Assembly: GCA_947054505.1 (NCBI GenBank) | Contig: CAMRWU010000002.1 | Span: forward strand, 6,214-70,213 | Length of the DNA stretch: 64,000 nucleotides | Reading direction: 5' to 3' | DNA from: an uncultured Pseudomonadota bacterium | Lineage (GTDB): Bacteria > Pseudomonadota > Alphaproteobacteria > RF32 > CAG-239 | Shown: positions 3,040-43,346 of the stretch, piece by piece | Layout: every line of letters begins with the position of its first letter | Numbering within the stretch: the stretch's first letter is position 1 | Notes under the pieces: model-generated | What the model was told of the DNA's origin: nothing | What the model saw: only the letters and a program-made list of their open reading frames with translations | Database searches by the model: none | Made by a program: the position numbers and the translations under genes

Positions 3040-3546
3040 ATGGCCTGGACAGACGAAATGGTCGAAGATTTGAAAAGAATGTGGAAAGAAGGGCTGACCA
3101 CCGGTGAAATTGGCAAACGCCTGAACGTTTCCAAAAACTCCATCGTCGGCAAAGTTCACCGTCTTGGTCTCTCCGGTCGTCCGTCTCCCATCAAGAAAAA
3201 AGAAGATTCTGCCGCTCCGGCAAAACCGCAACCTAAACCGGCTGCCCCCAAACCGGTAAAAACCGTTAAGGAAGAAAAGCCCATTGCTCCTAAAGTCGCT
3301 CCTGTTGAAAAAAAGCAACAGGAACCCGTAAAAGAAATGTTCACTCAGCCGATTATTCCGGCCACACCTAAAGTCAAACATAACGGCAATCTGAGCTTAA
3401 CTGATTTGGACAATCACACCTGTCGTTGGCCGATAGGCGACCCTAAAGATGACAACTTCCATTTCTGCGGCAAAAAAGTTCGCATCGGACAAACCTATTG
3501 CGAAGAACACGCCGCCCTAGCCTACGTAAAGCCGACAAAAAAATAA
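3040..3546 (+). CDS. gcrA: cell-cycle transcriptional regulator GcrA
   Basis: N-terminus MAWTDEMVEDLKRMWKEGLTTGEIGKRLNVSKNSIVGKVHRLGLSGR and C-terminus CRWPIGDP...FCG...YCEEHAALAY match the GcrA family; ATG at 3040 preceded by AAGGAG. Confidence 0.85.
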   Translation: MAWTDEMVEDLKRMWKEGLTTGEIGKRLNVSKNSIVGKVHRLGLSGRPSPIKKKEDSAAPAKPQPKPAAPKPVKTVKEEKPIAPKVAPVEKKQQEPVKEMFTQPIIPATPKVKHNGNLSLTDLDNHTCRWPIGDPKDDNFHFCGKKVRIGQTYCEEHAALAYVKPTKK

Positions 3547-3618
3547 TAAAATATTAACTCTTAACATGTTAAGATAACATAGATTTTGTATCAAAGACCT
3601 ATAAAAGGATGTCGTTTT

Positions 3619-4431
3619 ATGTCGCTTAACATGTTATTAGCCTTTCTTGCCGGTTTTGGCGTTGTTATCGGTTCTATCACTGCAGCAACCAACAATCCGG
3701 CTATGTTTATTGATATTCCGTCAGTCATTGTCGTCTGCGGTGGTACGTTTGTAACCCTGTTTATCTCTTACGAACTCAAAACCTCTAAAGAAGCACTGAG
3801 ACTCATTGGTCAATCATTCAAAAAACATACGGATTCGGAAATGTCCTTAAAAGACGAAGTCGGACGCATCATCCGTTGGGGCTACATCATCCAAAAAAAC
3901 GGCCTCCAAGGCTTGGAAAACGAAGTTACCGAACAACTTCGTAAAGAAAATCCCTTTTTGGCTTATGGCGTTGATTTGGTTGTCACCGGATACACTGGCA
4001 ATGAAATCAAACAAATCTTGTCCTATATGATTGATTCGGAAGTCGAACGTAGCGGCAAACCGACAGACGCCCTCAAAAAAATGGGCGGTGACGCACCGGC
4101 ATTCGGTATGATGGGAACACTTATCGGTTTGGTTATCATGCTTGGTAACATGGGATCTGATCCGGCAGCAATCGGTCCGTCAATGGCAGTTGCTTTGATC
4201 ACAACATTCTATGGTATTATCTTGGCTCGTTTGGTGATGATTCCCATTGCCACCAAAATCGCCGCACGCAACAATGTAACACAATTCAAACAAAATCTGG
4301 AAATGGAAGGGTTGGTTCTTTTGGCTGAAAGAAAAAGCCCCCGTTATATTCAGGATAAGATCAACTCATTCGTTTCAACAGAAGAACAGTTCCTGATTGA
4401 CCGCGATATGAACAATTCTCCGTCTGCATAA
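3619..4431 (+). CDS. motA: flagellar motor stator protein MotA (MotA/TolQ/ExbB family)
   Basis: multi-TM protein with conserved C-terminal TM3/TM4 region (GTLIGLV...ALITTFYG); immediately precedes motB. Confidence 0.75.
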   Translation: MSLNMLLAFLAGFGVVIGSITAATNNPAMFIDIPSVIVVCGGTFVTLFISYELKTSKEALRLIGQSFKKHTDSEMSLKDEVGRIIRWGYIIQKNGLQGLENEVTEQLRKENPFLAYGVDLVVTGYTGNEIKQILSYMIDSEVERSGKPTDALKKMGGDAPAFGMMGTLIGLVIMLGNMGSDPAAIGPSMAVALITTFYGIILARLVMIPIATKIAARNNVTQFKQNLEMEGLVLLAERKSPRYIQDKINSFVSTEEQFLIDRDMNNSPSA

Positions 4432-5461: not shown

Positions 5462-5704
5462 AATCTTTCTCCTTAAAAATTTTAACCTCTTTTAATATAG
5501 CTCCTAAAAAGCAAACAACAATTTTTCTAAACCATATGTACACATATTTTTCATGTTCCCGAGTGTCATTTTTCGCTGGTTTTAAAAAAAATATCGTGCT
5601 ATAAAACGCGCATAGAAAAGATTCTATATATGCAACCCCGACCGGAACGCGGGCTTTTATTTGTGTTTCGGTCGAATTTATTAACTTATAAGGATAATAG
5701 ATAT

Positions 5705-8700
5705 ATGTCTGACGTTAAGATGAAAATGATGGATGGTAACGAAGCTGCAGCTTCCGTTGCCCACCGCATGAATGAAGTCTGCGTTATCTACCCGATTACC
5801 CCGTCTTCTCCGATGGGTGAATGGGCTGATGCGTGGTCTGCAGCCAAACAAAAGAACCTTTGGGGTGTTGTTCCTGAAGTTCAGGAAATGCAATCTGAAG
5901 CCGGTGCCGCCGGTGCCTGCCACGGTTCAATTCAGGCTGGTGCTTTGACAACAACCTTCACCGCTTCTCAAGGTTTGCTGTTGATGATTCCCAACATGTA
6001 CAAAATTGCCGGTGAATTGTCTCCGTTTGTAATGCACGTTGCCGCTCGTTCTTTGGCTTACCATGCATTGTCAATCTTTGGCGACCACTCAGACGTTATG
6101 TCTTGCCGCCAGACAGGTTTTGCAATGTTGTGCTCTAACTCTGTTCAAGAAGCTCATGACTTTGCCGCTATCGCACAAACATCTACTCTGCGTTCTCGCG
6201 TACCGTTCATGCACTTCTTTGACGGTTTCCGCACTTCTCACGAAATCAAAAAAATCAAATTGCTCTCTGATGACAATTTGAACGCCATGTTGGAAGGCGT
6301 TGACTACAAACGCAACGCTGAATGCGCTCTGCGTCCGGAATCTCCGGTTATTCGCGGTACAGCTCAAAATCCGGATGTCTTCTTCCAAGGCCGCGAAGCT
6401 TGCAATCCTTTCTACAATCAGGTTGAAACCATTGTTCAGGAAGAAATGGACAAGTTCGCTAAAATCTCCGGCCGTTCTTACAAGACCGTTGAATATGTTG
6501 GTCCGGAAGATGCCGAACAAGTTATCGTTATCATGGGTTCCGGTGCTGAAACCGTTGAAGAAGCTATCACTTACCTCAACGCTAACGGCTATAAAGTCGG
6601 CTTGGTTAAAGTCCGCCTGTACCGTCCGTTCCCGTCCAAATCTTTCGTTGCCGCTTTACCGAAATCTGTTAAAGTCGTTAACGTTTTGGACAGAACAAAA
6701 GAATCAGGTTCTATCGGTGAACCTTTGTACCTCGACGTTGTCGCTACATTGACTCAAGCTTTTGCCAACAACGAAATCGCTTCTATGCCGCGCATTTTCG
6801 GTGGCCGTTACGGTTTGTCTTCAAAAGAATTCACTCCGGGTATGGTTCGTGCCGTTTATGACAACGGTGCTTCTGCAAAACCGATTAACGGTTTCTCTGT
6901 TGGTATTAACGATGACGTTAACAACACTTCCCTGCCCTACAGCGATGATATCGACACCGAAGGCAAAGATGTTGTCCGCGCCGTATTCTACGGTTTGGGT
7001 GCCGACGGTACTGTCGGAGCTAACAAAAACTCTATTAAGATTATTGCTGAAGATGCCGGCAAATATGGTCAAGGCTACTTCGTTTACGACTCTCGTAAAT
7101 CCGGTTCTATGACCACATCTCACTTGCGTTTCTCTGACAACCCGATTAAAGCCGCTTACTTGATTAACAAAGCTGACTTTGTCGCTTGTCACCAATTCCC
7201 GTTCATGGCAAAAGTTGATATTTTGAAAATTGCCAAACCGGGAGCAACCTTCTTATTGAACGCTCCTTACAGCGCTGACGAAGTTTGGGATCACCTCCCG
7301 ATTGAAGTTCAGGAAGAAATCATTGCTAAGAAATTGAACTTCTACACCATCAACGCTATTGAAGTTGCTCGTGCAACCGGCATGGGCATGCGCATCAACA
7401 CTGTAATGCAGACATGTTTCTTTGCAATTTCCAACATCTTGCCGAAAGATGAAGCAATTGCTCAGATTAAAAATGCCATTAAGAAAACTTACAGCAAAAA
7501 GGGGGATGCCATCGTTCAAAAGAACTTCGTTGCTGTTGACGCTTCTTTGGAACACCTGCACAAAGTTGAATATCCTTCAACTGTCACCTCCACATTCCAC
7601 CGTGCTCTTCCGGTTCCTGCCAATGCGCCAGAATTCGTTAAGAAGCTCACAGGTGAAATCATTGCCGACCGTGGTAACGAACTTCCGGTTAGCGCATTTG
7701 CTGAGGTTGTTGACGGCACATGGCCGACAGGCACAACCCAATACGAAAAACGTTGCATCGCAACCGAAATTCCGGTTTGGGATCCTGAAACATGTATCCA
7801 ATGCGGTAAATGTTCTTTGGTTTGCCCGCACGGTGTTATCCGTATGAAAGTTGCAACAGAAGAAGAATTGAAGAATGCTCCGGCTGGCTTCAAATCAGCT
7901 GCTTACAAAGGAAAAGAATTCGCAGGCAAACAATTCATCCTGCAAATTTCTCCGGAAGATTGTACAGGTTGCGGCATCTGCGTCAGCTCTTGTCCGGCTA
8001 AAAACAAAGCCAATCCGGAACTCAAAGCCATCAATATGGATCATATTGAAAACCACTTGGCTGAACAGAAAGCTTGCTGGAACTTCTTTGAAACTCTGCC
8101 GTACGTAAAACGTACCGAAGTTGAAAAGAAACTGCCGAAAACCACTCAGTTGATTCAACCGTTGTTTGAATACTCCGGCGCTTGTGCAGGCTGTGGCGAA
8201 ACACCGTACATCAAATTGTTGACCCAATTGTTCGGTGACCGTATGGTTGTTGCCAACGCAACAGGTTGTTCATCAATCTACTCCGGCAACCTGCCGACAA
8301 CACCTTATGCTAAGGACGAAAAAGGTCATGGTCCGGCTTGGGCAAACTCTTTGTTCGAAGACAACGCCGAATTCGGTCTGGGTATGAGATTCTCTATCGA
8401 CCAACAGACACACTTTGCCAAAACCTTGCTCGAAGGTTTGAAAGACAAAATCGGTGTCGAATTGGCTGACAAAATCTTATCCAACCCGCAAACAACAGAT
8501 ATCGAAATCGATGACCAACGCGCCAACGTTAAAGCTTTGCGCAACAAGTTGGCTTCCATTGACAGCGCAGAAGCTAAACACCTCGATACACTGGCTGATT
8601 ACCTGATCAAGAAATCAGTTTGGATTATCGGTGGTGACGGTTGGGCTTATGATATCGGCTTCGGCGGTTTGGATCACGCAATTGCCTCCGGCAAAAATAT

Positions 8701-15183: not shown

Positions 15184-16443
15184 TCAGAAATTATTTTTAA
15201 ACCAGCCGAAAATTTTTCCCAATCCGCCGGAAGCATTTCCGTGAACCGCCTTATTGACAATCTTTCCCGGCTTTTTTTCTGTATAATTCATAGCAAAAAG
15301 CAACAAACCGATACAGGTTGAAAACGACGGATCATACAAACTGTCCGGCAAATTCAAAACATTTTTAGGGTGTCCCAAACGCACTTGTTTATCCAGCACC
15401 ATGGATGCCACCTCACGCACACCGGAAAGTTGGGACGCACCGCCGGTCAACACAACTCTGTGGCTTGAAATATCACGTAAACCGACTTCCGCCAGCTTTT
15501 TATTAACAATCTCGAAAGTCTCTTCGATTCTCGGTGTAATAATGCTGATAAGTTCGGCTCTGGGAATCTGCTTAATACAACTGTCATCCTCCTCACCGAC
15601 CGGATAAACATTGATGGTTTCTTCCTTGTCTTGTGAAGTCAAAAAAGCACAACCATGCAAGGTTTTCAAACGCTCGGCATGAGAAAAAGAAGTTGTCAGC
15701 CCATAGGCAATATCATTTGTCACATTATTACCGCCGACCGGCAAAGAACTGAAGTAGATGGGAAAGCCATGCTGAAAACAAGCAATGGAGGTCGTACCGC
15801 CGCCCATATCGATAACCGTCGCCCCCAACTCTTTTTCATCGTCGACCAAGCAGGCCATACCGGAAGCATAAGATGAGAAAGCCTTGCCGGCAATCTCCAA
15901 ATGAGCATTTTCAATAACCGTCGAAACATTGCGAAACATAATATCGGGAACCAACCCCAATAATATATCCACAGACAACGTTTCTCCGAAAATATTGCGA
16001 GGATCTTTGATGTTTTCACCTCCGTCGAGCCGATAATTGGTCGGCAGACAATGAATCAACTCACATCCCTCGACATTGATTTTGTGTATTCCTTTTTCAA
16101 TAACTTTGGTTAAATCATTCTCATTAACAGCCCGATTCTTATTCAAAGGAATTGACGAATTTTTCACTACACTGCGAATTTTATCACCGGCAATGTTGAC
16201 AATAACGCGATCAATACGCTCATTTGCCATCTGCTCGGCGGCTTCCACGGCATTACAAACCGACAGGGTCGCCTTATTGATATCCGTCACGATACCGTTT
16301 TTAATCCCCCTGGAAGCATTATAGCCATACCCCACAACGTTAATCCGATTATCACGCCCGACTTTGGCAATAACACAACAAACTTTGGATGAACCGATAT
16401 CCAAAGCGGCAATAGTCGAAACCCGATTAAATGAATGTGGCAA
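15184..16443 (-). CDS. ftsA: cell division protein FtsA
   Basis: actin-like ATPase; IDIGSSK and DMGGGTT motifs; dcw gene order. Confidence 0.85.
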   Translation of the reverse strand: MPHSFNRVSTIAALDIGSSKVCCVIAKVGRDNRINVVGYGYNASRGIKNGIVTDINKATLSVCNAVEAAEQMANERIDRVIVNIAGDKIRSVVKNSSIPLNKNRAVNENDLTKVIEKGIHKINVEGCELIHCLPTNYRLDGGENIKDPRNIFGETLSVDILLGLVPDIMFRNVSTVIENAHLEIAGKAFSSYASGMACLVDDEKELGATVIDMGGGTTSIACFQHGFPIYFSSLPVGGNNVTNDIAYGLTTSFSHAERLKTLHGCAFLTSQDKEETINVYPVGEEDDSCIKQIPRAELISIITPRIEETFEIVNKKLAEVGLRDISSHRVVLTGGASQLSGVREVASMVLDKQVRLGHPKNVLNLPDSLYDPSFSTCIGLLLFAMNYTEKKPGKIVNKAVHGNASGGLGKIFGWFKNNF

Positions 16444-16459
16444 GGTTCACTCCTCTGGC

Positions 16460-17350
16460 TCAAATGTTTCTTTCTGTTCCCCGCCGTAACTCAACCGGCG
16501 GCTCTCCTTTTGTTTTGCGTAGTTTCACAATAACCTTATCTGGTAATCTTAAATCAATTATGGTTAATTTACGTTTAAGAAGTCCCTTGGTTTTATCTAA
16601 ATTTAACATTTTTTTCCATGCTTTGGCAATCCCTTCGTCGGGAAGCTTTATTGTCACACCGCTGACAATATCATCCAAAATAAGATTCCAACGACGACCG
16701 GCAATAAAATTAGCAACTTTAATACGCTTCAAATACTCGGGATTGGTATCGTTAACAACGGCAAGCAACTCGCTTAAATGTTCCGGCGCCTGAGCACCGA
16801 CTATCAACAAAATAGGCTCTCTCGTTCGAAAATCTGCATGAATGACTTTTCCGTCCTCATCCAAAGGATAAAACTTTTCATTCAACTGCCAAATTGCCGC
16901 CACCTGTTTTTCCTCTAAAGTGATATTCAAAATATTAGGGAAAAATCCGCGCCCCACATCCGCACTTTTCACCCACGGCAACTGTTCCAAACTGTGTTTG
17001 ATGGCATAAACATCCATCTTTAACATATTGTCACCGCGTGTCACTCCAACGGCCAATTCCAACTCTGTCTTTGTCGTCCGCTGTCGTCCGGTCACAATAA
17101 TGTCATCAAGTGTCAAACCTTGCTCTCCGGCCCAAAGATAAAAATCCTCCGTCAGACCCTGAATACGTTTGTTCACCAAATCGTTCTTCAAGGTCAGAAT
17201 AACTGCCGCAACCAACAAAATAACCCCCAGCATCAACAGGTTTCCTAATAGCCGAAACGGCCACTCCCGTTCCAAGCAAACAACATTGGACACTGGTTGT
17301 ATAAGAGGCTCATCAACTCCGGAAGATTGATTTTCAGGCTTTGCAGACAT
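16460..17350 (-). CDS. ftsQ: cell division protein FtsQ/DivIB
   Basis: single N-terminal TM then POTRA-like region; sits between murB and ftsA. Confidence 0.7.
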   Translation of the reverse strand: MSAKPENQSSGVDEPLIQPVSNVVCLEREWPFRLLGNLLMLGVILLVAAVILTLKNDLVNKRIQGLTEDFYLWAGEQGLTLDDIIVTGRQRTTKTELELAVGVTRGDNMLKMDVYAIKHSLEQLPWVKSADVGRGFFPNILNITLEEKQVAAIWQLNEKFYPLDEDGKVIHADFRTREPILLIVGAQAPEHLSELLAVVNDTNPEYLKRIKVANFIAGRRWNLILDDIVSGVTIKLPDEGIAKAWKKMLNLDKTKGLLKRKLTIIDLRLPDKVIVKLRKTKGEPPVELRRGTERNI

Positions 17351-30666: not shown

Positions 30667-32322
30667 TTATAAAAATAACAAAAAATGCTTGCCAAATAAA
30701 AAAAAGTGTCTTAGATATAGGACATCCACATTGATTGGGGTGTCGCCAAGTGGTAAGGCATCGGCTTTTGGTGCCGACATTCGTTGGTTCGAATCCAGCC
30801 ACCCCAGCCAGACTTGACAAGAGCCTATTTTAGCCAGTGCTAAGATAGGCTTTCTTATTGAAATATCTACATTTTTACCGTCTAATAAAATTTCCGAACA
30901 AAGTAATTTTAAAACCTGTTGTTTTTTGTCGTTGTTCAGAAAATTCCATATCTGGTCTGACATCAAAAGCAAGCCAGCCAAGTATTTGAGCGTTATCAGA
31001 CCTTGTTTAGTCAGATGACTATAGTCGGTTAATCGCTCTTCCAGTTTTTTCTTATCCTGTCTGTATTCGGTTAGTTTTTTGGTATATAAATCCTGTGTAA
31101 TACTGCCTTCCGTAAACAGGTCTATCAACCTGCTTTCCTTTTCTGCAAAACCTGCAATCTGCCTGTCCAATGCCTTCTTGGCTTCTATTTCCATTTTATG
31201 GTCTTTGTAAATTTCTTCATCCAAACAGGCAACCAATTTCTCGACAACGCTTTTAGGCATGTTTTTAAACGTTTTTAATGCCTCTCTCACTTTTTCAACC
31301 CCATTTTCCTCTCTCGTCCGATAGCCTCCGCATTGCGGACAAAAAAGGTATTTATAAACGACTTTTTCTCCGCCCTTCTTTTTCGCCGGATGTACATTGA
31401 TATCTGTCGAAACAACACCACCGCATTTTTTACAGCGAACCAATCCTTTGAATACATATTCATGCTTCTGCACCTTATGATTTGCCTTACCTTCCAAAAT
31501 TTCCTGACACCGTTCAAACGTATAGCTATCCGTCAGCCGCGGATAACAATGCGGATAATATTGCCCGCCACTGAACATCTCCCCGACATAAAAACGGTTG
31601 CTTAATATTCCGCGGATAGTCTGCTTATGAAGTTTCTTGCTGTTTTTCATCTTAAGCCCCAAGTCCGCGGCTTTCCGCGTTATCTGCTCAAGATTATAGG
31701 TACCAATCGAAAATTCCTTAAACAACCGCGTAATGATGAAATGGTTGTCCTCATCCAACACAATATCGCTGTTACCATTGGCATCCCTTACATTTTTATA
31801 GCCGACTGGTGCGTGATGTGGCCATTTTCCCTCTTTACGCATTTTTTCAAAGCTGCGTATTACATTATCACTCATCGTGTCTGTTTGCGACTGCGCAACT
31901 GTAATCCGAAAGTTCCACATCATCTTCTCATGAGCTTTGGCATTTTTCGCCATAATTGCTTGTTCCGTCTGAAAATGAATTGCAATTTTTTCTTTTTCAA
32001 TCAGCTTATTCAAAACATCATATTCCTTGAAGCTTCTTTGCAACCTATCAACTTTGTCACAAACCAAAGCAACCGGATTTTTATATTTTTTTATAAAATT
32101 TATCATATTATAAAATTCTTTTCGTTCACCTCTGGTCGAACTTTCAACAACGGTAAACTGCTTAATAATTGTCAACCCTTGCCGAATACAATAATTCTTT
32201 ACCCGGTCTTCCTGAGCATCAAGCGAATAACCTTCTTTCTGCTCTCTGCTTGATACTCGTATCCATAAAACGGCATGCTTTATATTTTTATCATTCACAA
32301 CTTTTGCAGCTTTTCTTCCCAT
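30667..32322 (-). CDS. large serine recombinase (integrase); the C-terminal ~50 codons read through tRNA-Gln on the opposite strand
   Basis: N-terminal resolvase domain (VLWIRVSSREQ), recombinase domain, zinc ribbon (CKKCGG...CPQCGG) and coiled-coil tail; the true C-terminus is uncertain because the ORF reaches a stop only after crossing the tRNA. Confidence 0.75.
   Translation of the reverse strand: MGRKAAKVVNDKNIKHAVLWIRVSSREQKEGYSLDAQEDRVKNYCIRQGLTIIKQFTVVESSTRGERKEFYNMINFIKKYKNPVALVCDKVDRLQRSFKEYDVLNKLIEKEKIAIHFQTEQAIMAKNAKAHEKMMWNFRITVAQSQTDTMSDNVIRSFEKMRKEGKWPHHAPVGYKNVRDANGNSDIVLDEDNHFIITRLFKEFSIGTYNLEQITRKAADLGLKMKNSKKLHKQTIRGILSNRFYVGEMFSGGQYYPHCYPRLTDSYTFERCQEILEGKANHKVQKHEYVFKGLVRCKKCGGVVSTDINVHPAKKKGGEKVVYKYLFCPQCGGYRTREENGVEKVREALKTFKNMPKSVVEKLVACLDEEIYKDHKMEIEAKKALDRQIAGFAEKESRLIDLFTEGSITQDLYTKKLTEYRQDKKKLEERLTDYSHLTKQGLITLKYLAGLLLMSDQIWNFLNNDKKQQVLKLLCSEILLDGKNVDISIRKPILALAKIGSCQVWLGWLDSNQRMSAPKADALPLGDTPINVDVLYLRHFFLFGKHFLLFL
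30689..30717 (+). promoter_or_regulatory. candidate sigma70 promoter for tRNA-Gln (TTGCCA-17 nt-TAGATA)
   Basis: -35/-10 hexamers with 17-nt spacing read by eye ~20 nt upstream of the tRNA 5' end. Confidence 0.4.
30736..30810 (+). tRNA. tRNA-Gln (anticodon UUG)
   Basis: cloverleaf folded by hand: acceptor UGGGGUG/CACCCCA (U1-A72), D-arm GCC..GGC, anticodon stem UCGGC/GCCGA with loop UUUUGGU, T-arm GUUGG-UUCGAAU-CCAGC, encoded CCA. Confidence 0.85.
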
Positions 32323-32428: not shown

Positions 32429-33280
32429 TTATGCTGCGACCTTCACCTCCGTTTCCTTGTTGGCAACTCTACCGAGTTCCCTGTCCAACTTCTTTTGAAC
32501 AGCATCAAAAATCATGTCATTGACTAAAGAGGTATATTTATGTTGATACAGTCTTCCGCCACTTCTCATGTACCCAGAATAAAAAGTATTCCGCAGCATA
32601 TGAAGCAATGTTCTTCGGCTGATTAAACTACCAGTAGTTGTATACAGAGGTAATGATTGAGCAATTTCAAGCAAATTTTTGATGCTGATTTCTGACCGTA
32701 AATAGGTATCAAATAGAAACTTAACTTTGTCAGCCTGTTCATCCGGCAGAATCCAAGGGCACCAACTTGGACGGCAATTTTTATATCCTATCGGTGCCTT
32801 GCCTGGGTAAAATCCATTCTCACGCATCGTTTGCAAAGCCTTTTTATCCTTTTCAGACTTGTCTGCAGAAAAATGCTCTGCTTTAGCAATCAACTCTCTG
32901 TATTCATATATATCATCCGCTGTAGAAAATAGTGAGATTACAATATGTTCTTTGACAAAGTGAATTTCGACTTTACCTGTTTGCACCAACTCGTCCAATA
33001 AACTCATGTGATTAAAGTTCCGGGCTAAACGGCTAGATTCCGACAAAACCAAAGCTACAGGCGTTACTTTTACTTGCTGGATTAAATCTAATATCTCATT
33101 AAATTTCGGACGTCTTTTAGTAAAGGCGCTTTCAATTGCTTGCTTATTTTGTATGATTTCAAAATTCTTACTTCGGCAATACTCTTTACAGATGGCTTCC
33201 TGTTCAGAGAGAGAGTTACCGATATTCTGCTTTACAGAAGAAATTCGGCACATAATTATTGCATTTTTAGCAAAATCCAT
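32429..33280 (-). CDS. serine recombinase, short (resolvase plus recombinase domains, no zinc-ribbon/coiled-coil)
   Basis: AIIMCRISSVKQ catalytic-Ser motif; 283 aa, lacking the C-terminal domains of the neighbouring 551-aa paralog. Confidence 0.65.
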   Translation of the reverse strand: MDFAKNAIIMCRISSVKQNIGNSLSEQEAICKEYCRSKNFEIIQNKQAIESAFTKRRPKFNEILDLIQQVKVTPVALVLSESSRLARNFNHMSLLDELVQTGKVEIHFVKEHIVISLFSTADDIYEYRELIAKAEHFSADKSEKDKKALQTMRENGFYPGKAPIGYKNCRPSWCPWILPDEQADKVKFLFDTYLRSEISIKNLLEIAQSLPLYTTTGSLISRRTLLHMLRNTFYSGYMRSGGRLYQHKYTSLVNDMIFDAVQKKLDRELGRVANKETEVKVAA

Positions 33281-34406
33281 CTCTATTTCCTTTCGTTAAA
33301 GTTATGATTTGATTTTCATTAATAGCTGCGGTTATGCCGTCCAAATCCGGCTGCAGCCAGTTGTTTTGCGGTTCGAGCCGGTTAATCAGCCGAAACAGTT
33401 CATAAATTGCCGGTGAAAAAGAGTTCCCCGCATGTAGCCGCAATTCTCGTTTGCCCATCGTCTTCAGTATCGTTACTAAACCGACAAGCTGCAGGGCTTT
33501 TAGAAACTTATATTTGGCATCCAGCAGACGCTTGAATAAATCTGCCGAATTTTCTTCGCTTAACTGCTGATATCTGACAGCCGCCAAAATTTCATTCCAA
33601 TAAACCAGCGTAATAGCTCGGCAAATTTGACTGCTGAAAAGATTTTGGAATGTCAGCTCCGGAACTGGAAGCCCCGCTTTGCTGATGGCTTGGCGGATAT
33701 TCTCAGAATTGCCTAACTGAATTTCAACCCGTAAATATTGGCTTGAGCCTAGGGCTGCCATATCAATTGTCTGGGCATTTTCGGAACTGACAGCCCGACT
33801 TTTACAATACCGGGCTTTTTGAATATCTTTGAGTTTATCGTAAATAACGACATTCCGGTGTCGGGCTAAAAAATGCAGCGAATGCCCTTCGTTTCGGTAT
33901 GACACCTTGGTACAATCGAGCCGACGGCTGATGTCAGCTTTGTTCAAATATTGTAAAATCACACAGGGTGCGACTTTAACCAAGACATTCTTACCAAAGT
34001 CAATCCTTACAACTTGTGCCGACCGCAACACTTGAGACGAAGCATCAACACCCATCTCGTGAAGCCGTAATGCCAAAATGCTGATGACATCTTCAAAGTC
34101 GGCATCGCAAACTTCTTCCAGATTGTTGGGCGGAAAATGCAGAAGTTTCGGTGTGGAAAATTCAATTTTCAACTTAACGCTGAAACCTCCGTGCCGCAGC
34201 ACGCTGCTTAATGACAGCCTAGGGTAGTAATGCTGTTGCTGCTCTTCACGCGTTGCAAAGTTATAGCAGGTCACAGCCTCCGCCCCTTGCATATCCCAGA
34301 GGATTTGCGGATTAGGCTTAAAACGCCCAAGCTCTGTTATTGTGATGTCCGTGTAATCGACCAGCAAAACGCAGGTATCACAGACATTTTTATTATTTGT
34401 GCTCAT
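33267..34406 (-). CDS. hypothetical protein, possibly a Rep_trans-like rolling-circle initiator/relaxase
   Basis: 379 aa with VVRIDFGKN resembling the RxDxAxD-type motif of Rep_trans initiators; this is inference only. Confidence 0.35.
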   Translation of the reverse strand: MSTNNKNVCDTCVLLVDYTDITITELGRFKPNPQILWDMQGAEAVTCYNFATREEQQQHYYPRLSLSSVLRHGGFSVKLKIEFSTPKLLHFPPNNLEEVCDADFEDVISILALRLHEMGVDASSQVLRSAQVVRIDFGKNVLVKVAPCVILQYLNKADISRRLDCTKVSYRNEGHSLHFLARHRNVVIYDKLKDIQKARYCKSRAVSSENAQTIDMAALGSSQYLRVEIQLGNSENIRQAISKAGLPVPELTFQNLFSSQICRAITLVYWNEILAAVRYQQLSEENSADLFKRLLDAKYKFLKALQLVGLVTILKTMGKRELRLHAGNSFSPAIYELFRLINRLEPQNNWLQPDLDGITAAINENQIITLTKGNRDGFC

Positions 34407-35262: not shown

Positions 35263-35474
35263 TTTATTGCCTTGCTTTAATGTTTATAAAATAGCAAAAA
35301 CCGTTTTCCTTTCAAAGTCAAATTATTAGAAATATTTCCCACAAAAAACAGCCCCGAATAAGAAATATCCGGGGCTGCTTAGTTTTAGTGATTTAACGCT
35401 TAAAATTTATACTTAGCGTTAATCAATCCTGTGTGGTCTTGGTAAACCACCTCAGATTTGAGGTGTTTATAACA

Positions 35475-36413: not shown

Positions 36414-36914
36414 TTATTCATAATCTTCAACGCCGTTCTCTGTCATTCGATAGTATAAAACACCATCTCTGGCCTTGCCATCGACATCCCAGAACAACGC
36501 TTCAATACTGGCACAATTAGTTTCTTCCAAATCCAAATCTGCCCCAACTTCTACCCTTTGTTTATCACCGTTGTTAGCATCTTGAATAAACTCTCTTAAA
36601 ACAAACTGGACACTCCGCCCCCCTTGAGGAAAGCAAAACCTTCTATAAACAGTTGTCTTATATACATCTCTGATTGAATAAACATCAGTTATTATTTCTG
36701 CATAAATTGGCCTGTCATTCCGCACGCCATCCATCTTTGTACATTGGGTTTTAATGCTTGAAACAACTTCTTTTCCATCACATGCCGAAATATAGTTAGC
36801 CTCAGGAATTTCAAAACCATACTGCTCATGGTAAGCACCATACACAGCAAAAATTATGACCATTATTCCTACAACATAAAGAAATTTATGCCAAAGATAT
36901 TTTAGTTTTTCCAT
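36414..36914 (-). CDS. hypothetical membrane-anchored protein
   Basis: 166 aa with a single N-terminal TM helix. Confidence 0.45.
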   Translation of the reverse strand: MEKLKYLWHKFLYVVGIMVIIFAVYGAYHEQYGFEIPEANYISACDGKEVVSSIKTQCTKMDGVRNDRPIYAEIITDVYSIRDVYKTTVYRRFCFPQGGRSVQFVLREFIQDANNGDKQRVEVGADLDLEETNCASIEALFWDVDGKARDGVLYYRMTENGVEDYE

Positions 36915-37329
36915 TTAGTTTCTCCCTTTTTCTAATTCTAACAAAAATAAAAGTCGCCAAAGTTCCATGGCGACCGGGAGTTAGTAACTGCACTATAACA
37001 GCATGATGCTTTTGGCATAATGCTTGGACATAACATCATCTCCCGGTCATAAAAACCGGAAGAAGTGTTTTTTGATTTCGGTCTGCCTTCTAAAATCTCA
37101 GACCGTATAGTGAAGAGGTTACTACGCCCCAGTCCGACAATCGAACCAGTTTTATATTAGGTTAAACCGGGAAAAAAAGTCAAAGAATTTTTTTTAATAT
37201 TCAAGTCCGTCAACTCATTATATAATTTTAGTTTTATAATGAGTCCTTATTTTTTAAGCGTTGTAAGACTTTAAGCCTGGACTTTTATTTTATACTCATT
37301 ATAATTTATTACATAAATTCAATAACATA

Positions 37330-37947
37330 ATGAGTTTGAGGCAAAAAATGGCACTTAATAAACAGGCAAAAATCCTCACGCCAAAGCAGCAGGAACTGAC
37401 ATTGAGCTATTTGGAACGGACAAGATATCCGCTCCGCAACAAAATTATTTTTATGCTTAGTTACAAGGCCGGATTGCGGGCAAAGGAAATAGCGAATCTA
37501 AACTGGCTGATGGTTTGCGACTCGGAAGGAAACTTGAGCCGAGAAATTAACCTTATTAATAAGGCATCCAAAGGTAAACAATCTGGTCGGATTATTCCGT
37601 TGCATAAAGATTTGGCGGTCTTATTAGCGGAATTGCTAAGCAGACAACAGAAGAATAAGCATTTTAATTTGACGAATCGGATTATTACGACAGAACGCGA
37701 CAATAAGACCAGCCCGCAGGCAATCGTCAATTTCTTTTATAATTTATATAAGGAAATCGGGTTTGAAGGCTGCTCCTCGCATAGCGGCCGCAGAACCTTC
37801 ATCACCACTGCTGCTAAAAATATCAGCCTTGCCGGCGGAACCTTAAACGATATCCGCATGTTGGCCGGACATTCCACCCTTGCTACCACCCAACGCTATA
37901 TTGAATACAATACCGATGCACAGAAGAAAATTGTGGAGATGGTTTAA
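37330..37947 (+). CDS. small tyrosine recombinase (catalytic domain only, FimB/FimE-sized)
   Basis: box I R (AGLRAKE), HSGRRTF, and GHSTLATTQRYIE with catalytic Tyr; only 205 aa and no N-terminal arm/core-binding domain. Confidence 0.7.
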   Translation: MSLRQKMALNKQAKILTPKQQELTLSYLERTRYPLRNKIIFMLSYKAGLRAKEIANLNWLMVCDSEGNLSREINLINKASKGKQSGRIIPLHKDLAVLLAELLSRQQKNKHFNLTNRIITTERDNKTSPQAIVNFFYNLYKEIGFEGCSSHSGRRTFITTAAKNISLAGGTLNDIRMLAGHSTLATTQRYIEYNTDAQKKIVEMV

Positions 37948-39071
37948 GAAGAACGCATACAAGATGGTGATGAAACTACAACACATCCATCAAATTTTAA
38001 ACCATATATTCCATTTTTGAATTTTTGATGTTCTTCCGTTGATGCTTGATTATCCCATAAAAAAGCAACAAGTTTACATTTTTCATATTCTTCAGATGCT
38101 GTATATAGAGTTTTGTCCGCAGCTAATTCTTCAGTCAAATCAGCAAATGTTTTTGCTTTACCTTTTCTATATTTCACCTCAATTATCAAATGAAGTTCAG
38201 GAATATAAAGATCAGCTCTAGGATTCTTATGCCCCTGTTGTGGAAGATTGATTTCTTTTTGTATTCTCGGAAAAATTGGTGCCAGCATCACATACAATAA
38301 ATTTTGAACATGATATTCATTTTCTATAAGCCATTTTACAGGTGGACTGGTTTTTGTTTTGGGTTTTTCTTCCCAAGTCCAGCAATTCAATCCCATCGAA
38401 ATATTTTCCATAAAGGAAATTAAATTTTCCAAACTCCAATTATTCGCTGGAACCGTTGCTTGTTCTTCTGAAATATGATTAAAAATATAAATTAAAGCAG
38501 CTATTAACCACACAGAAGAAATATCCTCTACCTTAGTATATATCTTCCAGAACTCTGCAATGCAAAAATCTTTCAAATCCGTCTGTAATTCATATAGCCC
38601 TTTGTAATGCAGTAATAAAAGCACGACAGGAGAAGAAACTTTATTTGAAATATCCTCATTCAGCACAAATTTTGCCAAAGTTTCTTCATGTAAATTGAAT
38701 TTTTGTTTTTTAACTGCAAATCTTAAAAAATTTTCAATCCAGCTATTGAAGGCTCCTATTAAAATATCATTTTTTGATGCTGCTACAGCTAACTTAATTC
38801 CCAATAAACCAATAACATCATAATGCCATGGCATAGGCACTCCATCAATTTCTGCAGCACATTTAAATAATCGGCTTAATTTTTCTTGATTACAAATGCC
38901 ATTAAATCCATTGATTGCACACTCATAAAAGTCTGCATCATTAAAAACATTTTGTGTACTCAATCCTAAATATTTTACAAAGGCATCTACATTAGTATTT
39001 GTTCCACAACCTTGGATAAGCTTCTCATTAAGATACTCTTTAATATGATAGTTATTATTTACAGAAACCAT
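37944..39071 (-). CDS. pAgo-associated protein with C-terminal PD-(D/E)xK-like nuclease motif
   Basis: 375 aa; C-terminal ENEYH...RADLYIPELHLIIEVKYRKGK gives an E...D-x11-E-V-K arrangement typical of restriction-endonuclease-fold nucleases; 13-nt overlap with the upstream pAgo gene. Confidence 0.5.
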   Translation of the reverse strand: MVSVNNNYHIKEYLNEKLIQGCGTNTNVDAFVKYLGLSTQNVFNDADFYECAINGFNGICNQEKLSRLFKCAAEIDGVPMPWHYDVIGLLGIKLAVAASKNDILIGAFNSWIENFLRFAVKKQKFNLHEETLAKFVLNEDISNKVSSPVVLLLLHYKGLYELQTDLKDFCIAEFWKIYTKVEDISSVWLIAALIYIFNHISEEQATVPANNWSLENLISFMENISMGLNCWTWEEKPKTKTSPPVKWLIENEYHVQNLLYVMLAPIFPRIQKEINLPQQGHKNPRADLYIPELHLIIEVKYRKGKAKTFADLTEELAADKTLYTASEEYEKCKLVAFLWDNQASTEEHQKFKNGIYGLKFDGCVVVSSPSCMRSS

Positions 39072-41257
39072 TTAGCCCTTCCTGTCTTTTGAAATAAGCA
39101 GCTATTATCCCATTTGGGTAATTGATTTAACCAGCCTAAACTATAAGCAATTAAATTTGAATACATTATTGTAACTGGTAATGGTGCTACAAAATAACTT
39201 CTCCAAGAATGAGCCGAAAAATTAAATATTTGATTGCTCAGATATTTAATATCCTTAAATGTAGAATCTTTATGAACACTTGCATAAACACATTGAGGGT
39301 GGCCATCATTAGTTTTTTTAAGTTCTGCACCCCCTGTTAAACATAATAACATGGCATAATCTGAAATTTTAAAATACTGTCCCCTAGTTGGTGCCAAACA
39401 TCCCTTGTTTTCATTATCCCTATTTGTATCAAAAGTTTCCCATAAATGTTCTTTCGATAATTTTACAAATGCATATTCAATATTATACTCTTTGAATTTC
39501 TTTATAACATCTTTTACTGCTTCAATTTCATATCCATTAAACTCTTTTACCATAGAGTGAAAGACAATTCTGATAGTATCACCTTCTACCCAACTCATCG
39601 ATGCTTTAACTTTATCAATTGTAGTTTCCAAAACATTTGCTAGTTCGTCTTTATATCCATCAGGAAAAACCGCATTAGATTTTCCAGTAAGAATATATTG
39701 ACCGCTACCGCTAAATACTGTTGTTATTCCCATAACTCTATTTTTTCTGGTATTCTGCTCGCCTTCAGAAATAAATGCACTACCAATTCCTATTACCAAC
39801 TCATGTACAACGGTTGGTATTGATTGCAATAACCAAGGGACACCGCCCATTTTTGCATATGTAGCTAAAGCCATATTATTTAATGAATATCCTAAGGTTA
39901 TATCATTTTGTTGAAGTGTCTCTATTGTAAAATCCTGAACCGGTATATCACGAGCCATCAACATTGATTTTGCGGTAAAATAAGGATTATCCTTGACATT
40001 CAAATCTTTAAATGATTTTTCAATTTGAACCAATGCTAGATCCCATAATTTCTCGCCAGCCTTATATTCCAAAGCATTTTCAATGGCTTTTTTATATCCT
40101 GCAGGTGTATTTGATGCAAATGTAAATATTTTAACAGTACTTCGGCCAATTCCAAATTTTCCTTCTAAACCATTACTAAAATATTTATGTTCATTAATTC
40201 CACTCAGAAATTTACGAACAAATTGTTCAACTTCTCCTTGCCTTGATTCTGAACAAATTACACATATCGCAGGGTTATTTCTGTCAAAGTGAGCTTTTGT
40301 ATAAGGGCCAAATTTTTTCAAACCATATTCTATTCCTGTTGCAATAGAACTATTTGCAAATGTAAATTGCGGTTTTTCAAAATTATTTATTTTAGAAGTG
40401 ATATTAAAAAGTTCCTCAATTTGGATTCCATTATTTTCAAAAAATTGAGATTTTTTAAGAAAATTTGCAAAAGCTTTAATCTTGCTAAATTTGTTTTTAC
40501 CGTTACTAAAAGCGGAAACAGCATTATACAACTTCTCGTTTATTTTTTGAGCAGATGTCCTATACAAAAGACTCAAATAATCTTTAATATTTTTATAGCT
40601 TGGTATCAAAAAAAGGCTATCTGAAGCATAATTCTGGCTATCGCCATTTGTTTCACAAATAATATTATTTCCTTCATAGCTTTTAATTTTTCCAACTTTT
40701 TTTCTTTCACCATTAGGTAAATTTATATAAGCCTTTCTTCCGATTAAATTAAAACCTTTAGAATAAAAATAATTACATGGATAGCTTGTCTGATATCTAA
40801 CGGAGGTATCAACTAAAATGCAGGTCTCATTCTCAATTTCCCGAACATCAATCAAGTACGAAGGAAGTGCCGCAAAAGGAAAATCAGTATTTAAAACTTT
40901 TTTTATAATGTCTTCCTCAGACTTAGAGCTAATAAGGCAAATCGGATTAAAACCCCAAGCCTTATTTTTTCCAGCGTTATCAATAGCTTTTTTTATTGCA
41001 TATTTTATTAAAACTTTTCTAAAATCACTATATTCTTCATCCGTAATATCAATCTCTTTTACCCACTCTTGTAATTTGCTATCATATTGCTGTTCAAATG
41101 AAAAACCTAATATTTCCATACCTTTATGTCGATAAAATATGACAGATTTATATTTTACTTTCAATTCATTAAATAAATCATCAGAATATTTTAAAACACA
41201 AATAGAAAATTTTGTTTGTTTTAATTTAACTGGGCATCCATTCAAATAAATTGCCAT
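39059..41257 (-). CDS. prokaryotic Argonaute (pAgo), catalytically inactive PIWI (long-B-like)
   Basis: 732 aa; PIWI signature YAKMGGVPW then VIGIGSAF in place of GxDV(S/T)H (D to G), RIVFHSM in place of the RDG motif, and IMYSNLIAY in place of the YYA(H/D) motif. Confidence 0.7.
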   Translation of the reverse strand: MAIYLNGCPVKLKQTKFSICVLKYSDDLFNELKVKYKSVIFYRHKGMEILGFSFEQQYDSKLQEWVKEIDITDEEYSDFRKVLIKYAIKKAIDNAGKNKAWGFNPICLISSKSEEDIIKKVLNTDFPFAALPSYLIDVREIENETCILVDTSVRYQTSYPCNYFYSKGFNLIGRKAYINLPNGERKKVGKIKSYEGNNIICETNGDSQNYASDSLFLIPSYKNIKDYLSLLYRTSAQKINEKLYNAVSAFSNGKNKFSKIKAFANFLKKSQFFENNGIQIEELFNITSKINNFEKPQFTFANSSIATGIEYGLKKFGPYTKAHFDRNNPAICVICSESRQGEVEQFVRKFLSGINEHKYFSNGLEGKFGIGRSTVKIFTFASNTPAGYKKAIENALEYKAGEKLWDLALVQIEKSFKDLNVKDNPYFTAKSMLMARDIPVQDFTIETLQQNDITLGYSLNNMALATYAKMGGVPWLLQSIPTVVHELVIGIGSAFISEGEQNTRKNRVMGITTVFSGSGQYILTGKSNAVFPDGYKDELANVLETTIDKVKASMSWVEGDTIRIVFHSMVKEFNGYEIEAVKDVIKKFKEYNIEYAFVKLSKEHLWETFDTNRDNENKGCLAPTRGQYFKISDYAMLLCLTGGAELKKTNDGHPQCVYASVHKDSTFKDIKYLSNQIFNFSAHSWRSYFVAPLPVTIMYSNLIAYSLGWLNQLPKWDNSCLFQKTGRAKWFL

Positions 41258-41377
41258 ATTTCAGCTTTCAGACAGTATTAAATAAATTTTGCAAAAAGAC
41301 TACAAATCAAAAAAAGGTAGCCTATATTGAATACTTAGGAATTTTTTTATTCTGTATCAAGAGCTAAAAGTATTTTT

Positions 41378-41650
41378 TTATAAATTTTTACTACTTAGCA
41401 TATTTTTATCCGCTCTTTCAAAAATGGCACCTAAGATTTCAAGGTTTTTAATCGTAGCTTTTAATATCTTGTTTTGCATTGCACGGAGCGTATAAAAATT
41501 TTTGCTTTTGTTTGATTCCATTGTTTTGACAATCATTTCAACTTCCAAGCCTGTATAGCAACGCATTATTCGCGTAAACGGATTACTGAAATGCTTTAGT
41601 GCATAATTTAATGCCGTATTGTCCAGACAAATATAAAAGTCCTTAATCAT
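41378..41650 (-). CDS. small hypothetical protein (90 aa)
   Basis: ORF in AT-rich island DNA; no recognised domain. Confidence 0.3.
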   Translation of the reverse strand: MIKDFYICLDNTALNYALKHFSNPFTRIMRCYTGLEVEMIVKTMESNKSKNFYTLRAMQNKILKATIKNLEILGAIFERADKNMLSSKNL

Positions 41651-41698
41651 TTTTATTATTTCCTTCTGCTGTTGGCTATATAATAAAAATATTGAGCA

Positions 41699-41866
41699 CT
41701 AGCCTTTTTCTATTGTCATCATCTGCCGCAAATCGTCATCCATGCCGTTAATAATAAGGTACATTTCCGCTAATTCCTGTTCATATTTTTTCCTAAGGTC
41801 ATAAACCTTGGTCAGCCAGAGTTCAAAAGTCGTCAGAAATGGCGATTTTTTCTTTTTATCAAGCAT
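41699..41866 (-). CDS. small hypothetical protein (55 aa; not in the ORF track)
   Basis: ATG-initiated ORF MLDKKKKSPFLTTFELWLTKVYDLRKKYEQELAEMYLIINGMDDDLRQMMTIEKG, read by hand. Confidence 0.25.
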   Translation of the reverse strand: MLDKKKKSPFLTTFELWLTKVYDLRKKYEQELAEMYLIINGMDDDLRQMMTIEKG

Positions 41867-43133: not shown

Positions 43134-43346
43134 ATGAAAAAAATATTGCTTATATTAACAATCCTCTTATTTACGACATCCTCATTTGCCACTGAAGATA
43201 AAGCCGTAATTATGAATATCCAAACATATATCTATCATCATCCTTCCTGCAAATGGGCTAAAAAATGCACAAAGAATTGTATCAAAACCACCAAACAAAA
43301 AGCCCAAACTCAAGGAGCTCGGGCATGTAAAGTCTGTGGCGGATAA
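43134..43346 (+). CDS. small secreted cysteine-rich protein (possible metal-binding)
   Basis: 70 aa with signal peptide and an HHPSC...C...C...CKVCGG cysteine pattern. Confidence 0.4.
   Translation: MKKILLILTILLFTTSSFATEDKAVIMNIQTYIYHHPSCKWAKKCTKNCIKTTKQKAQTQGARACKVCGG

Follow-up and report, generated by a model that had tools for sequence, protein, structure and literature searches.

The IRS of the transposons Tn4430 and Tn5401 lies just upstream of the tnpI gene and consists of an inverted-repeat core and two extra TnpI motifs, and its promoters are regulated by TnpI binding (PMC2847244; PMC7157771). The FimB/FimE system of E. coli combines recombinases of ~200 aa, which have no separate N-terminal DNA-binding domain, with short inverted repeats and a promoter close to the gene, the repeats of fimS flanking an invertible element of ~300 bp. 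Xer recombinases with a site by the gene (XerS/difSL, XerH/difH and XerA/dif) have a single palindromic core of ~30 bp near the gene and function in dimer resolution at the chromosome terminus. On the integron platform, four integrase-binding boxes of attI (L-R, DR1 and DR2) lie by the 5' end of intI, with the core distal and the accessory boxes proximal. In addition, gp143 of the non-temperate phage phiCbK is a 'catalytic core only' protein of 208 aa, for which multimer resolution was proposed by the genome authors (PMC3556154).

In this study, a module with features of several of these systems was analyzed in a 64-kb stretch of DNA (the window), where it sits in a chromosomally integrated island. 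The module contains a tyrosine recombinase gene (37348-37947, plus strand) whose 199-aa product consists of the catalytic domain only, with the R, K, H-x-x-R, H and Y residues all present. The 205-aa ORF matches PF00589 with 65.5 bits (cut-off 27.1) over residues 15-194, and the HMM alignment pairs the catalytic residues with the catalytic motifs of XerA and covers XerA residues 110-273 only; the initial annotation had thus correctly described a catalytic-domain-only enzyme. R44, H145, R148 and H175 are invariant among 12 homologues and Y184 is nearly so, and the predicted fold (a moderate-quality model) resembles those of Tn1549 Int, Cre and XerA. The start codon is very probably the ATG at 37348, because it is preceded at a distance of 6 nt by a ribosome-binding site, GAGG (37338-37341, plus strand; GGAG or AAGG at this place in relatives), homologues are nearly all 199 aa long and cover 97% of the 205-aa ORF, gene callers give 199 aa for the identical gene on two contigs, and in close relatives the ATG inside the upstream motif runs into a stop after 4 codons (e.g., in locus L003). 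The start proposed earlier within that motif (37330) is therefore probably wrong.

Four copies of a short motif had been reported upstream of the gene, and all of them were recovered at the same positions. The 10-mer ACTCATTATA occurs on the plus strand at 37213-37222 and 37294-37303 and as its complement at 37235-37244; the fourth copy (37326-37335, minus strand) has one mismatch. The three exact copies are the only ones on either strand of the window and fall within 91 bp, compared with a mean of 0.10 expected from dinucleotide-preserving shuffles, and when one mismatch is allowed the window contains nine matches (4.24 expected), four of which are at this locus. The motifs had been paired as second with third; this pairing did not hold, as the natural pairs are first with second, which form a 32-bp near-palindrome, and third with fourth, which form a 42-bp element. 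The near-palindrome, named Site 1 (37213-37244, no strand assigned), reads ACTCATTATATAA-TTTTAG-TTTTATAATGAGT and is located 135 to 104 nt upstream of the ATG. Its left arm (37213-37225) and right arm (37232-37244) are 13 nt each and 92% complementary, separated by a 6-nt center (37226-37231), and this 13+6+13 arrangement is the canonical shape of a core site; Site 1 is accordingly proposed to be the core (crossover) site of the tyrosine recombinase. The 42-bp element, named Site 2 (37294-37335, no strand assigned), has inverted half-sites at both ends, ACTCATTATAATT (37294-37306) and TAACATAATGAGT (37323-37335), as well as a third, degenerate half-site at 37304-37316, and within it 37303-37335 matches Site 1 at 73% as a direct repeat. 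Site 2 extends from the -10 box to just ahead of the ribosome-binding site, i.e., from 54 to 13 nt upstream of the ATG, and is proposed to be an operator and accessory site.

The two sites are separated by a 49-bp segment (37245-37293, plus strand) that holds a -35-like hexamer, TGGACT (37278-37283). Together with TATAAT at 37300-37305 and a spacer of 16 nt, this hexamer forms a predicted sigma-70-type promoter of the recombinase gene (37278-37305, plus strand), which matches at 10 of 12 positions and is the best candidate within 36850-38050. The -10 box lies inside the left half-site of Site 2 (the third motif), and the fourth motif is placed between the -10 box and the ribosome-binding site. 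Relatives keep a TTGAnn hexamer, a spacer of 16-17 nt and TATAAT.

The recombinase belongs to a large family, with at least 7,950 related proteins among the 8,000 candidates scored. Homologues at E≤1e-30 form 146 clusters at 50% identity, nearly all of 190-210 aa, and members were found in gut Alphaproteobacteria, rhizobia, Rhodobacteraceae and plasmids of Piscirickettsia salmonis, a pathogen of fish. In public annotation, the gene is called only 'site-specific integrase'. Literature searches for an already described group of recombinases that have the catalytic domain only and such a layout yielded just the remark on phiCbK gp143; this absence is not a proof, and the family appears to be uncharacterized.

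Homologues from 97% down to ~50% protein identity, in many genera, share one layout: a 32-bp site, an interval of 49 or 59/60 bp, and a second site of 42/43 bp. Of 81 loci, ~50 have the 32-bp site at a distance of 132-149 nt before the ATG. Members of the gut alphaproteobacterial clade have an interval of 49 bp, and most other clades one of 59-60 bp; this difference corresponds to one helical turn, and 10-bp steps preserve the helical phase. In the 59-bp clade, 13 of 34 loci have an IHF-like YAANNNNTTGA at a constant distance past Site 1 (0.4 expected); it is absent from the window and was left out of the reading of this locus. The outer-to-outer spacing of Site 2 (42-43 bp, ending ~10 nt ahead of the ATG) is kept across the family. 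Across 34 diverse loci, the arms of Site 1 are conserved, the central ~6 nt are variable, and there is no conservation to the left of Site 1. The conserved unit corresponds to 37212-37947 (~735 bp) and has sharp borders at both ends in every relative. Moreover, half-site variants move together: the window clade has ACTCAT, the Bradyrhizobium clade has ACTGAT, and locus L059 carries ACTGATA four times. Independently detected Sites 1 and 2 are more alike within a locus (5.77) than between loci (5.40 ± 0.14), a value reached by 27 of 5000 permutations. Site 1 is present in exactly one copy per locus (46 loci), and no convincing second Site 1 was found, either with half-site pairs of ≤2 mismatches each in the 64-kb window and within ±6 kb of ~45 loci or with the exact pattern in all loci.

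Compared with the described systems, the module is similar to TnpI/IRS in that a site lies directly upstream of a tyrosine recombinase gene and contains four copies of one recombinase-binding motif (binding is putative for the module). In both, two inverted, short-spaced copies form a core, which in IRS is the strand-exchange core with a 6-bp stagger and in the module has a 13+6+13 shape with a variable center. Two further copies lie nearer the gene, being accessory in IRS and putatively so in the module, and IRS contains promoters that the recombinase modulates, while in the module a promoter-like match has its -10 inside Site 2 and such regulation is predicted. The two differ in that the extra motifs of the module (two or three, conserved) are inverted and 22 nt apart in a 42-bp element, whereas those of IRS are tandem direct repeats. 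Its length of 284 aa also suggests that TnpI has an N-terminal region before its catalytic domain, while the recombinase analyzed here has 199 aa and the catalytic domain only. Furthermore, the module has no Tn3-family transposase nearby: the ORFs of the window island scanned against Pfam include no transposase of any kind, and among the nearest neighbors listed for ~70 loci, the only transposase was one IS110-type match.

The catalytic domain is closest to those of Xer proteins, and a single palindromic core close to the gene is a further likeness, but the Xer equivalog models scored far below their cut-offs (XerA 53.5/220, XerC 49/335, XerD 44/330 and XerS 19/267 bits). In contrast to Xer proteins, the recombinase lacks an N-terminal core-binding domain (the alignment begins at XerA residue 110), resides in mobile or accessory DNA in variable contexts, and has an extra second site that overlaps the promoter. 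The recombinase resembles FimB and FimE in size and domain make-up, and the module resembles the fim system in its short inverted repeats and nearby promoter; however, the FimB/FimE models NF007370 and NF007371 gave 12.8 bits (E 0.068; cut-off 221; controls, FimB 458 and FimE 452), BLASTP against FimB/FimE gave 25 bits, the repeats make up two palindromic sites, and a single orientation was found in 77 contigs. The four boxes beside the 5' end of the gene are reminiscent of the integron platform, but the variable cargo of the module lies mainly past the 3' end of the gene, and attC-like elements are lacking. No integron-integrase model matched the recombinase at E≤0.01, nor at E≤1 in a second scan, in which FimB and FimE did match TIGR02249. 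The recombinase shares 33-36% identity with those of phiCbK-like phages, but the four-half-site layout was absent upstream of such distant homologues (33-35% identity) in both phage loci examined, and the role of gp143 is likewise a proposal.

We consider it somewhat probable that the motifs are half-sites of the adjacent recombinase and that the ~735-bp unit is a self-contained, autoregulated module that resolves multimers or cointegrates of its island. The idea of an autoregulated recombinase binding array, raised in the initial annotation, gains support from sequence evidence, namely the same four half-sites in the same geometry throughout the family, their co-variation within loci, the -10 box within the third motif, and the fourth motif between the -10 box and the ribosome-binding site. 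We infer binding, crossover at Site 1, autorepression and a role in resolution as follows. Two recombinase protomers would bind Site 1, the putative crossover site; synapsis with another Site 1, carried by a sister or partner molecule, would follow, and strands would be exchanged across the 6-bp center. Site 2 presents the same half-sites 10 bp further apart, probably too far for strand exchange, and recombinase bound there would cover the -10 box and the 5' untranslated region and so act as a repressor of its own gene. Site 2 may also serve as an accessory arm that biases the reaction toward resolution of directly repeated sites. The most likely role would be the resolution of multimers or cointegrates of a circular form of the island, the same job that TnpI/IRS, Cre/loxP and res sites do for transposons and plasmids. 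The single Site 1 per locus fits a resolution site, of which there is one per replicon copy. The proposal also draws on the sharp borders of the unit, the lack of a recurrent partner gene, the family members near parA-parB on Piscirickettsia plasmids, the role proposed for gp143, and the breakpoint within Site 1 at two loci (L019 and L024). No dimer, circular junction or resolved product was seen. The lack of a core-binding domain in the recombinase family counts against a confident reading of site-specific binding.

The context of the module is that of mobile DNA. The island in the window encodes a Rep-like protein and two serine recombinases; the Rep-like match (Phage_CRI, 20.2 bits) is weak, below the cut-off of 21.7, and is the basis for the island replicating as a circle. 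When the unknown island proteins were compared with PHROGs and PADLOC, matches were obtained only for an HTH regulator, the recombinase itself and an Argonaute pair. No direct repeat of the 3' end of the tRNA-Gln gene was found as an island border, and no recurrent partner gene was detected among the nearest neighbors at ~70 loci. In Piscirickettsia salmonis plasmids, 55%-identical members lie ~0.9 kb upstream of parA-parB, and one such plasmid carries three modules with differing half-sites. A plasmid search aimed at alphaproteobacterial plasmids again returned mostly Piscirickettsia.

An alternative that we regard as possible, yet unlikely, is that the module serves integration or cointegration. 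Site 1 would then be attP- or attI-like, circular DNA with the same or a similar site would be inserted or excised, and elements would be fused or cargo captured instead of, or besides, being resolved; in principle, simple tyrosine recombinase reactions can run in both directions. Several rearrangements point in this direction. At loci L019 and L024, two different modules (~66% identical) are joined head-to-head at one shared Site 1, and the breakpoint therefore lies within Site 1. Six loci (L009/L119, L028, L033, L042 and L078) have directly oriented 3' fragments of another recombinase allele 0.4-3 kb downstream, which resemble remnants of tandem modules. These fragments, together with the head-to-head fusion, are as compatible with integration or cointegration as with resolution. 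In addition, the module type represented by L018 has at least four different left flanks, each beginning at the outer edge of Site 1, and the neighboring genes of the family are diverse defense and mobile cargo. On the other hand, in the window clade (58 contigs), the flanks beyond the stop codon are hypervariable (27 classes), compared with only ~4 classes on the Site 1 side, and neither a second Site 1 nor a recognizable half-site was found at the far end of any cargo, either in ±6 kb or across the 64 kb of the window. The cargo borders were also free of site-like motifs in the DNA that follows the stop codon, at the left end of the 41405-41818 block and in the variable region on the left near 35448. 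For L009, the cargo that lies beyond the 3' recombinase fragment matched no other locus. An integration role is also disfavored by the lack of an arm-binding domain and of an Xis-like partner.

It is improbable that the enzyme is a long-range invertase or a shufflon-type recombinase, for which Site 1 and one or more distant, possibly degenerate partners would invert or shuffle large segments of the island. The FimB/FimE-like size and domain make-up would suit such an enzyme, and the head-to-head fusion of modules could be an inversion product. However, no partner site with ≤2 mismatches per half-site was found in the window or in the ±6-kb flanks of ~45 loci, and gene order near the module is collinear in close relatives. 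The chance is smaller still that the motifs are ordinary transcription signals, with Site 1 as the terminator hairpin of the upstream gene and Site 2 as the operator of another regulator. In favor of this, the RNA fold of Site 1 (-10.6 kcal/mol, z -4.3) is followed by a U-rich run, and in L002-L010 Site 1 begins directly after a stop codon. However, the stem has only two G-C pairs, GC-richer clades keep Site 1 without the U-run, the half-site is repeated in Site 2 and varies along with the recombinase clade, and Site 1 moves with the gene into unrelated contexts.

The initial annotation had also suggested a fim-like flip of the segment between the second and third motifs. We checked its orientation on related assembled contigs, including metagenomes: the segment 37245-37293 was inverted in 0 of 77, a count that covers assemblies only, so that a rare minority state could escape it. 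The inverted state would read TTTTAGTTTTATAATGAGT and then ATAAAATAAAAGTCC. Metagenome contigs were scanned with the 25-mer TATAATGAGTATAAAATAAAAGTCC, which fits both orientations: the bracketing arms are perfect inverted repeats, and the 25-mer therefore also occurs, as its reverse complement, at the normal junction. All 51 of its matches, candidates for inverted junctions, showed the normal arrangement on inspection and were rejected as such. A promoter switch, in which these two motifs recombine and flip the 49-bp segment with its -35 to turn the recombinase gene on or off, is thus largely refuted at the assembly level and very hard to sustain: the motifs do form a perfect 11-nt inverted repeat 49 nt apart, with a -35-like hexamer inside the segment and the -10 outside, but each is the inner arm of a separate palindromic site, one of these sites has a center of at least 16 nt and is not competent for strand exchange, the recombinase falls outside the FimB/FimE subfamily, and a tyrosine-recombinase synapse would have to form with a very short loop of 49 bp.

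Beyond the preferred role in resolution, a broader view, to which we assign a low likelihood, is that this minimal module also fuses and separates mobile elements at Site 1 and thereby moves defense cargo, such as the adjacent Argonaute system, among islands, plasmids and phages, with four protomers seated on one stretch of DNA in a fixed helical phase. In that case, the present analysis may be the first anatomical description of a widespread, uncharacterized class. If the proposed module is real, a gene known as 'site-specific integrase' gains a site, a geometry, and predictions on binding, cutting and self-repression. As the family shows, a precise four-site architecture can persist over large evolutionary distances beside a tyrosine recombinase that lacks the usual N-terminal DNA-clamping domain. 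If the recombinase works without host factors, the module would be among the smallest self-sufficient site-specific recombination systems, and a 199-aa enzyme with a 32-bp target would suit genome engineering as a small tool. The module also serves as a useful landmark for a hotspot of defense genes in the islands of gut bacteria.

All four copies of the short repeat that the initial annotation reported near a small tyrosine recombinase gene were found where it had placed them. A search of both strands of the 64-kb window finds three exact copies of the 10-mer ACTCATTATA, at 37213 (+), 37235 (-) and 37294 (+), against a mean of 0.10 in dinucleotide-preserving shuffles, so chance and AT-rich composition do not account for the cluster; the fourth copy, with one mismatch, lies at 37326-37335 (-). 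The copies pair as motifs 1+2 and 3+4. The first pair forms Site 1 (37213-37244; ACTCATTATATAA-TTTTAG-TTTTATAATGAGT), whose 13-nt arms and 6-nt centre have the classical format of tyrosine-recombinase core sites. The second forms Site 2 (37294-37335), which has the Site 1 half-sites at both ends, 42 bp outer to outer, and a degenerate third half-site within. The best promoter match of the region (TGGACT, 16 nt, TATAAT; 37278-37305) has its predicted -10 element within the left half-site of Site 2.

The recombinase gene is listed as an ORF of 205 aa (37330-37947), and motif 4 had been described as holding its start codon. Several lines point instead to ATG 37348 as the true start: homologues are almost all 199 aa long and span 97% of the 205-aa ORF, gene callers give 199 aa for the identical gene on two other contigs, GAGG is present 6 nt before this ATG, and the motif-4 ATG runs into an in-frame stop in close relatives. 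Motif 4 would thus lie in the leader, just ahead of the ribosome-binding site. The sole Pfam match of the protein is the catalytic domain PF00589 (65.5 bits), and its alignment with XerA is limited to XerA residues 110-273, with the catalytic R, K, HxxR, H and Y present. The predicted structure, of moderate quality (pLDDT 72), resembles Tn1549 Int, Cre and XerA. Searching a library of 50%-identity representatives at E<=1e-30 gave 146 clusters matching the recombinase, nearly all of 190-210 aa, and the catalytic-domain-only build is the norm in this family and no truncation. No published description of the family or its site was found in the literature searched, which hints that the family is uncharacterised.

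A genome scan returned 80 of at least 486 loci encoding relatives of the recombinase, whose hosts include gut alphaproteobacterial MAGs, Bradyrhizobium, Afipia, Hyphomicrobium, Rhodobacteraceae and Piscirickettsia. The 25 closest loci (65-97% protein identity) have Sites 1 and 2 at matching positions, and about 50 of 81 upstream regions have four half-sites in a fixed geometry: Site 1 covers 32 bp at -132 to -149, Site 2 measures 42-43 bp and stops about 10 nt short of the ATG, and the two are separated by 49 bp in the gut clade and by 59-60 bp in the other loci. These 10-bp steps keep the helical phase. In an information profile of 34 diverse loci, the Site 1 arms are conserved (ACTnATTATAgAA), the central ~6 nt are variable, and no conservation is seen left of the site; conserved arms around a variable centre are expected if the arms are what the protein reads and the strands are exchanged across the centre. 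The half-site varies by clade (ACTCAT, ACTGAT or ACTTAT, and ACTGATA four times in the homologous locus L059). With sites located independently, half-site likeness was 5.77 within loci versus 5.40 +/- 0.14 between loci, the observed 5.77 being reached by 27 of 5000 permutations in a control that ignores kinship between loci. A further element, YAANNNNTTGA, stands at a fixed offset, 5-6 nt past Site 1, in clades with the 59-60-bp gap. It was detected in 13 of 34 loci (0.4 expected), including the inter-site segments of L028, L029, L051, L056, L061, L068, L074, L077 and L078, and is absent from the window; in several loci it equals the reverse complement of the IHF consensus WATCAANNNNTTR.

When the loci were compared with the window by BLASTN, similarity started at 37212-37213 and stopped at 37941-37953 in every relative. 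The left flank is common to the window and the homologous locus L001, and in L002-L010 a small gene has its stop codon directly against Site 1 instead. On the right, every close relative diverges from the window at the first base past the stop codon, and similarity returns at a block matching 41405-41818. The 58 contigs with a module of 80% identity or more comprise about four classes by the 40 nt left of Site 1, and 27 by the 40 nt past the stop codon. No recurrent partner gene was found among the nearest neighbours in about 70 loci, which are mostly restriction-modification, Thoeris, Shedu, reverse transcriptase, toxin and IS genes. In the window, the cargo region (37948-41400) directly past the stop codon holds a class II prokaryotic Argonaute (39059-41257; 739 bits) and its partner with an Aga Helical-REase / DpnII-MboI domain (37944-39071; 315 bits); this pair occupies a hotspot that has the recombinase gene on one side and the conserved block on the other, and in which relatives carry other cargo. 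The right anchor of the hotspot (41378-41866 (-)) consists of two small conserved ORFs of 90 and 55 aa, neither with a match at E<=0.001 in PHROGs or PADLOC. Their block occurs twice in L004 and is split between the ORFs by a 2.6-kb insertion in L001. A 70-aa protein ending in ...ACKVCGG is encoded 6 kb downstream of the module (43134-43346 (+)), and it is its paralogue (72-77% nucleotide identity) that abuts Site 1 in most relatives. The module (protein 90% identical) is also present on L137, a 43.7-kb IMG/VR contig with a viral classification. This contig ends 3 nt beyond the recombinase gene's last sense codon, i.e. at the stop codon, which may be an assembly break at the hypervariable cargo border.

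The module lies in a low-GC island (~30.8-43 kb; GC 0.29-0.40 vs about 0.43 elsewhere). At its left edge, the ORF of a large serine recombinase (551 aa; 30667-32322 (-)) runs antisense through a tRNA-Gln gene (30736-30810 (+)), followed by a second serine recombinase (32429-33280) and a weak match to a Rep-like protein (33267-34406); a direct repeat of the tRNA-Gln end was looked for and not found. Adjoining Site 1 on the left is a candidate structured RNA of about 200 nt (36942-37148 (-); MFE -75 kcal/mol, z -5.65) with its own promoter-like match (TTGACT-18-TAATAT; 37183-37154 (-)) and a terminator (36975-36952 (-)). The Rfam sRNA-Xcc1 match at 36964-37048 is sub-threshold (32.5 bits vs a gathering score of 53), and stretches homologous to the candidate RNA are found in L017 and L020.

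Each locus carries exactly one Site 1, which argues against a local inversion system and fits action between copies, that is, multimer or cointegrate resolution, or integration. An integrative role is the main rival to resolution. In L019 (5165-6582) and L024 (2255-3673), two unlike modules (~66% identical) stand head-to-head and share one perfectly palindromic Site 1, and at six loci (L009/L119, L028, L033, L042, L078) a second recombinase allele, not identical to the first, is represented by a 3' fragment (from residues 102-142 to near the C-terminus) that lies 0.4-3 kb past the intact gene in the same orientation. These loci are evidence for breakpoints within Site 1 and for tandem or fused modules. 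The arrangements fit cointegration followed by incomplete resolution, and integration equally well. Resolution is favoured by parA-parB proximity, a three-module plasmid, phiCbK-like phages and the gene content of the window's own island. The module (protein 55% identical) is located ~0.9 kb upstream of parA-parB in P. salmonis plasmids of 8.6 kb and 158 kb, and a 35-kb mosaic plasmid (L084, P. salmonis NZ_CP038970.1) has three modules (3172-3762, 5578-6168 and 15987-16577) with differing half-sites, copies 1 and 2 being of one type and copy 3 of another (ACTCGTTATA). Non-temperate phiCbK-like phages encode 33-36%-identical recombinases, and multimer resolution was suggested for phiCbK gp143 (208 aa) by its authors (PMC3556154). 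Moreover, the island in the window encodes a weak Rep-like protein along with two serine recombinases and adjoins tRNA-Gln, so another enzyme is at hand for integration. P. salmonis drafts contain contigs of 717 and 742 bp with nothing but the module, which fits a repeat present in multiple copies.

Of the two possibilities raised in the initial annotation, a recombinase binding array is supported by the sequence evidence, whereas an invertible 50-bp switch is not supported, in view of a single orientation and of a protein that is not of FimB/FimE type. The inter-site segment (37245-37293) has one orientation throughout all 24 close genome loci that span it, two identical-gene contigs and 51 human-gut metagenome contigs. 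Since the metagenome query, a 25-mer, was the reverse complement of the normal junction and matches both orientations, the finding of 0 of 51 inverted is meaningful, though only at the level of assembled consensus. The inverted pair (37234/37294) proposed to bracket the switch belongs to two sites, its 37234 member being the right arm of Site 1 and its 37294 member the left arm of Site 2, and Site 2, with at least 16 nt between arms, is not a plausible crossover partner. Tyrosine recombinases such as Cre require considerably more than 49 bp between sites. The FimB/FimE-type invertase assignment was rejected at 12.8 bits against a cut-off of 221 (controls, 458 and 452 bits), and BLASTP against FimB gave 25 bits; membership in the Xer, integron-integrase and FimB/E families was rejected by their curated models.

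The closest functional analogue of the module is TnpI/IRS. IRS, a 116-bp site directly upstream of tnpI, combines an inverted-repeat core (6-bp stagger) with two additional TnpI-binding motifs, the latter conferring resolution selectivity (PMC2847244), and in Tn5401 TnpI modulates promoters inside the site (PMC7157771). In contrast to TnpI/IRS, the recombinase here is much smaller and has no core-binding domain, the accessory half-sites are inverted and 22 nt apart, and there is no Tn3-type transposase. In the proposed mechanism, the recombinase would bind the half-sites, cleave at the Site 1 centre and repress its own gene, and the recombination reaction would have a directionality. We are most confident that the motifs are the recombinase's binding sites, and assign the module a specific biological role more tentatively. 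On balance, and with moderate confidence in the statement as a whole, we read the feature as a conserved module in which a recombinase and its sites form a self-contained unit, most likely one that serves autoregulated resolution.
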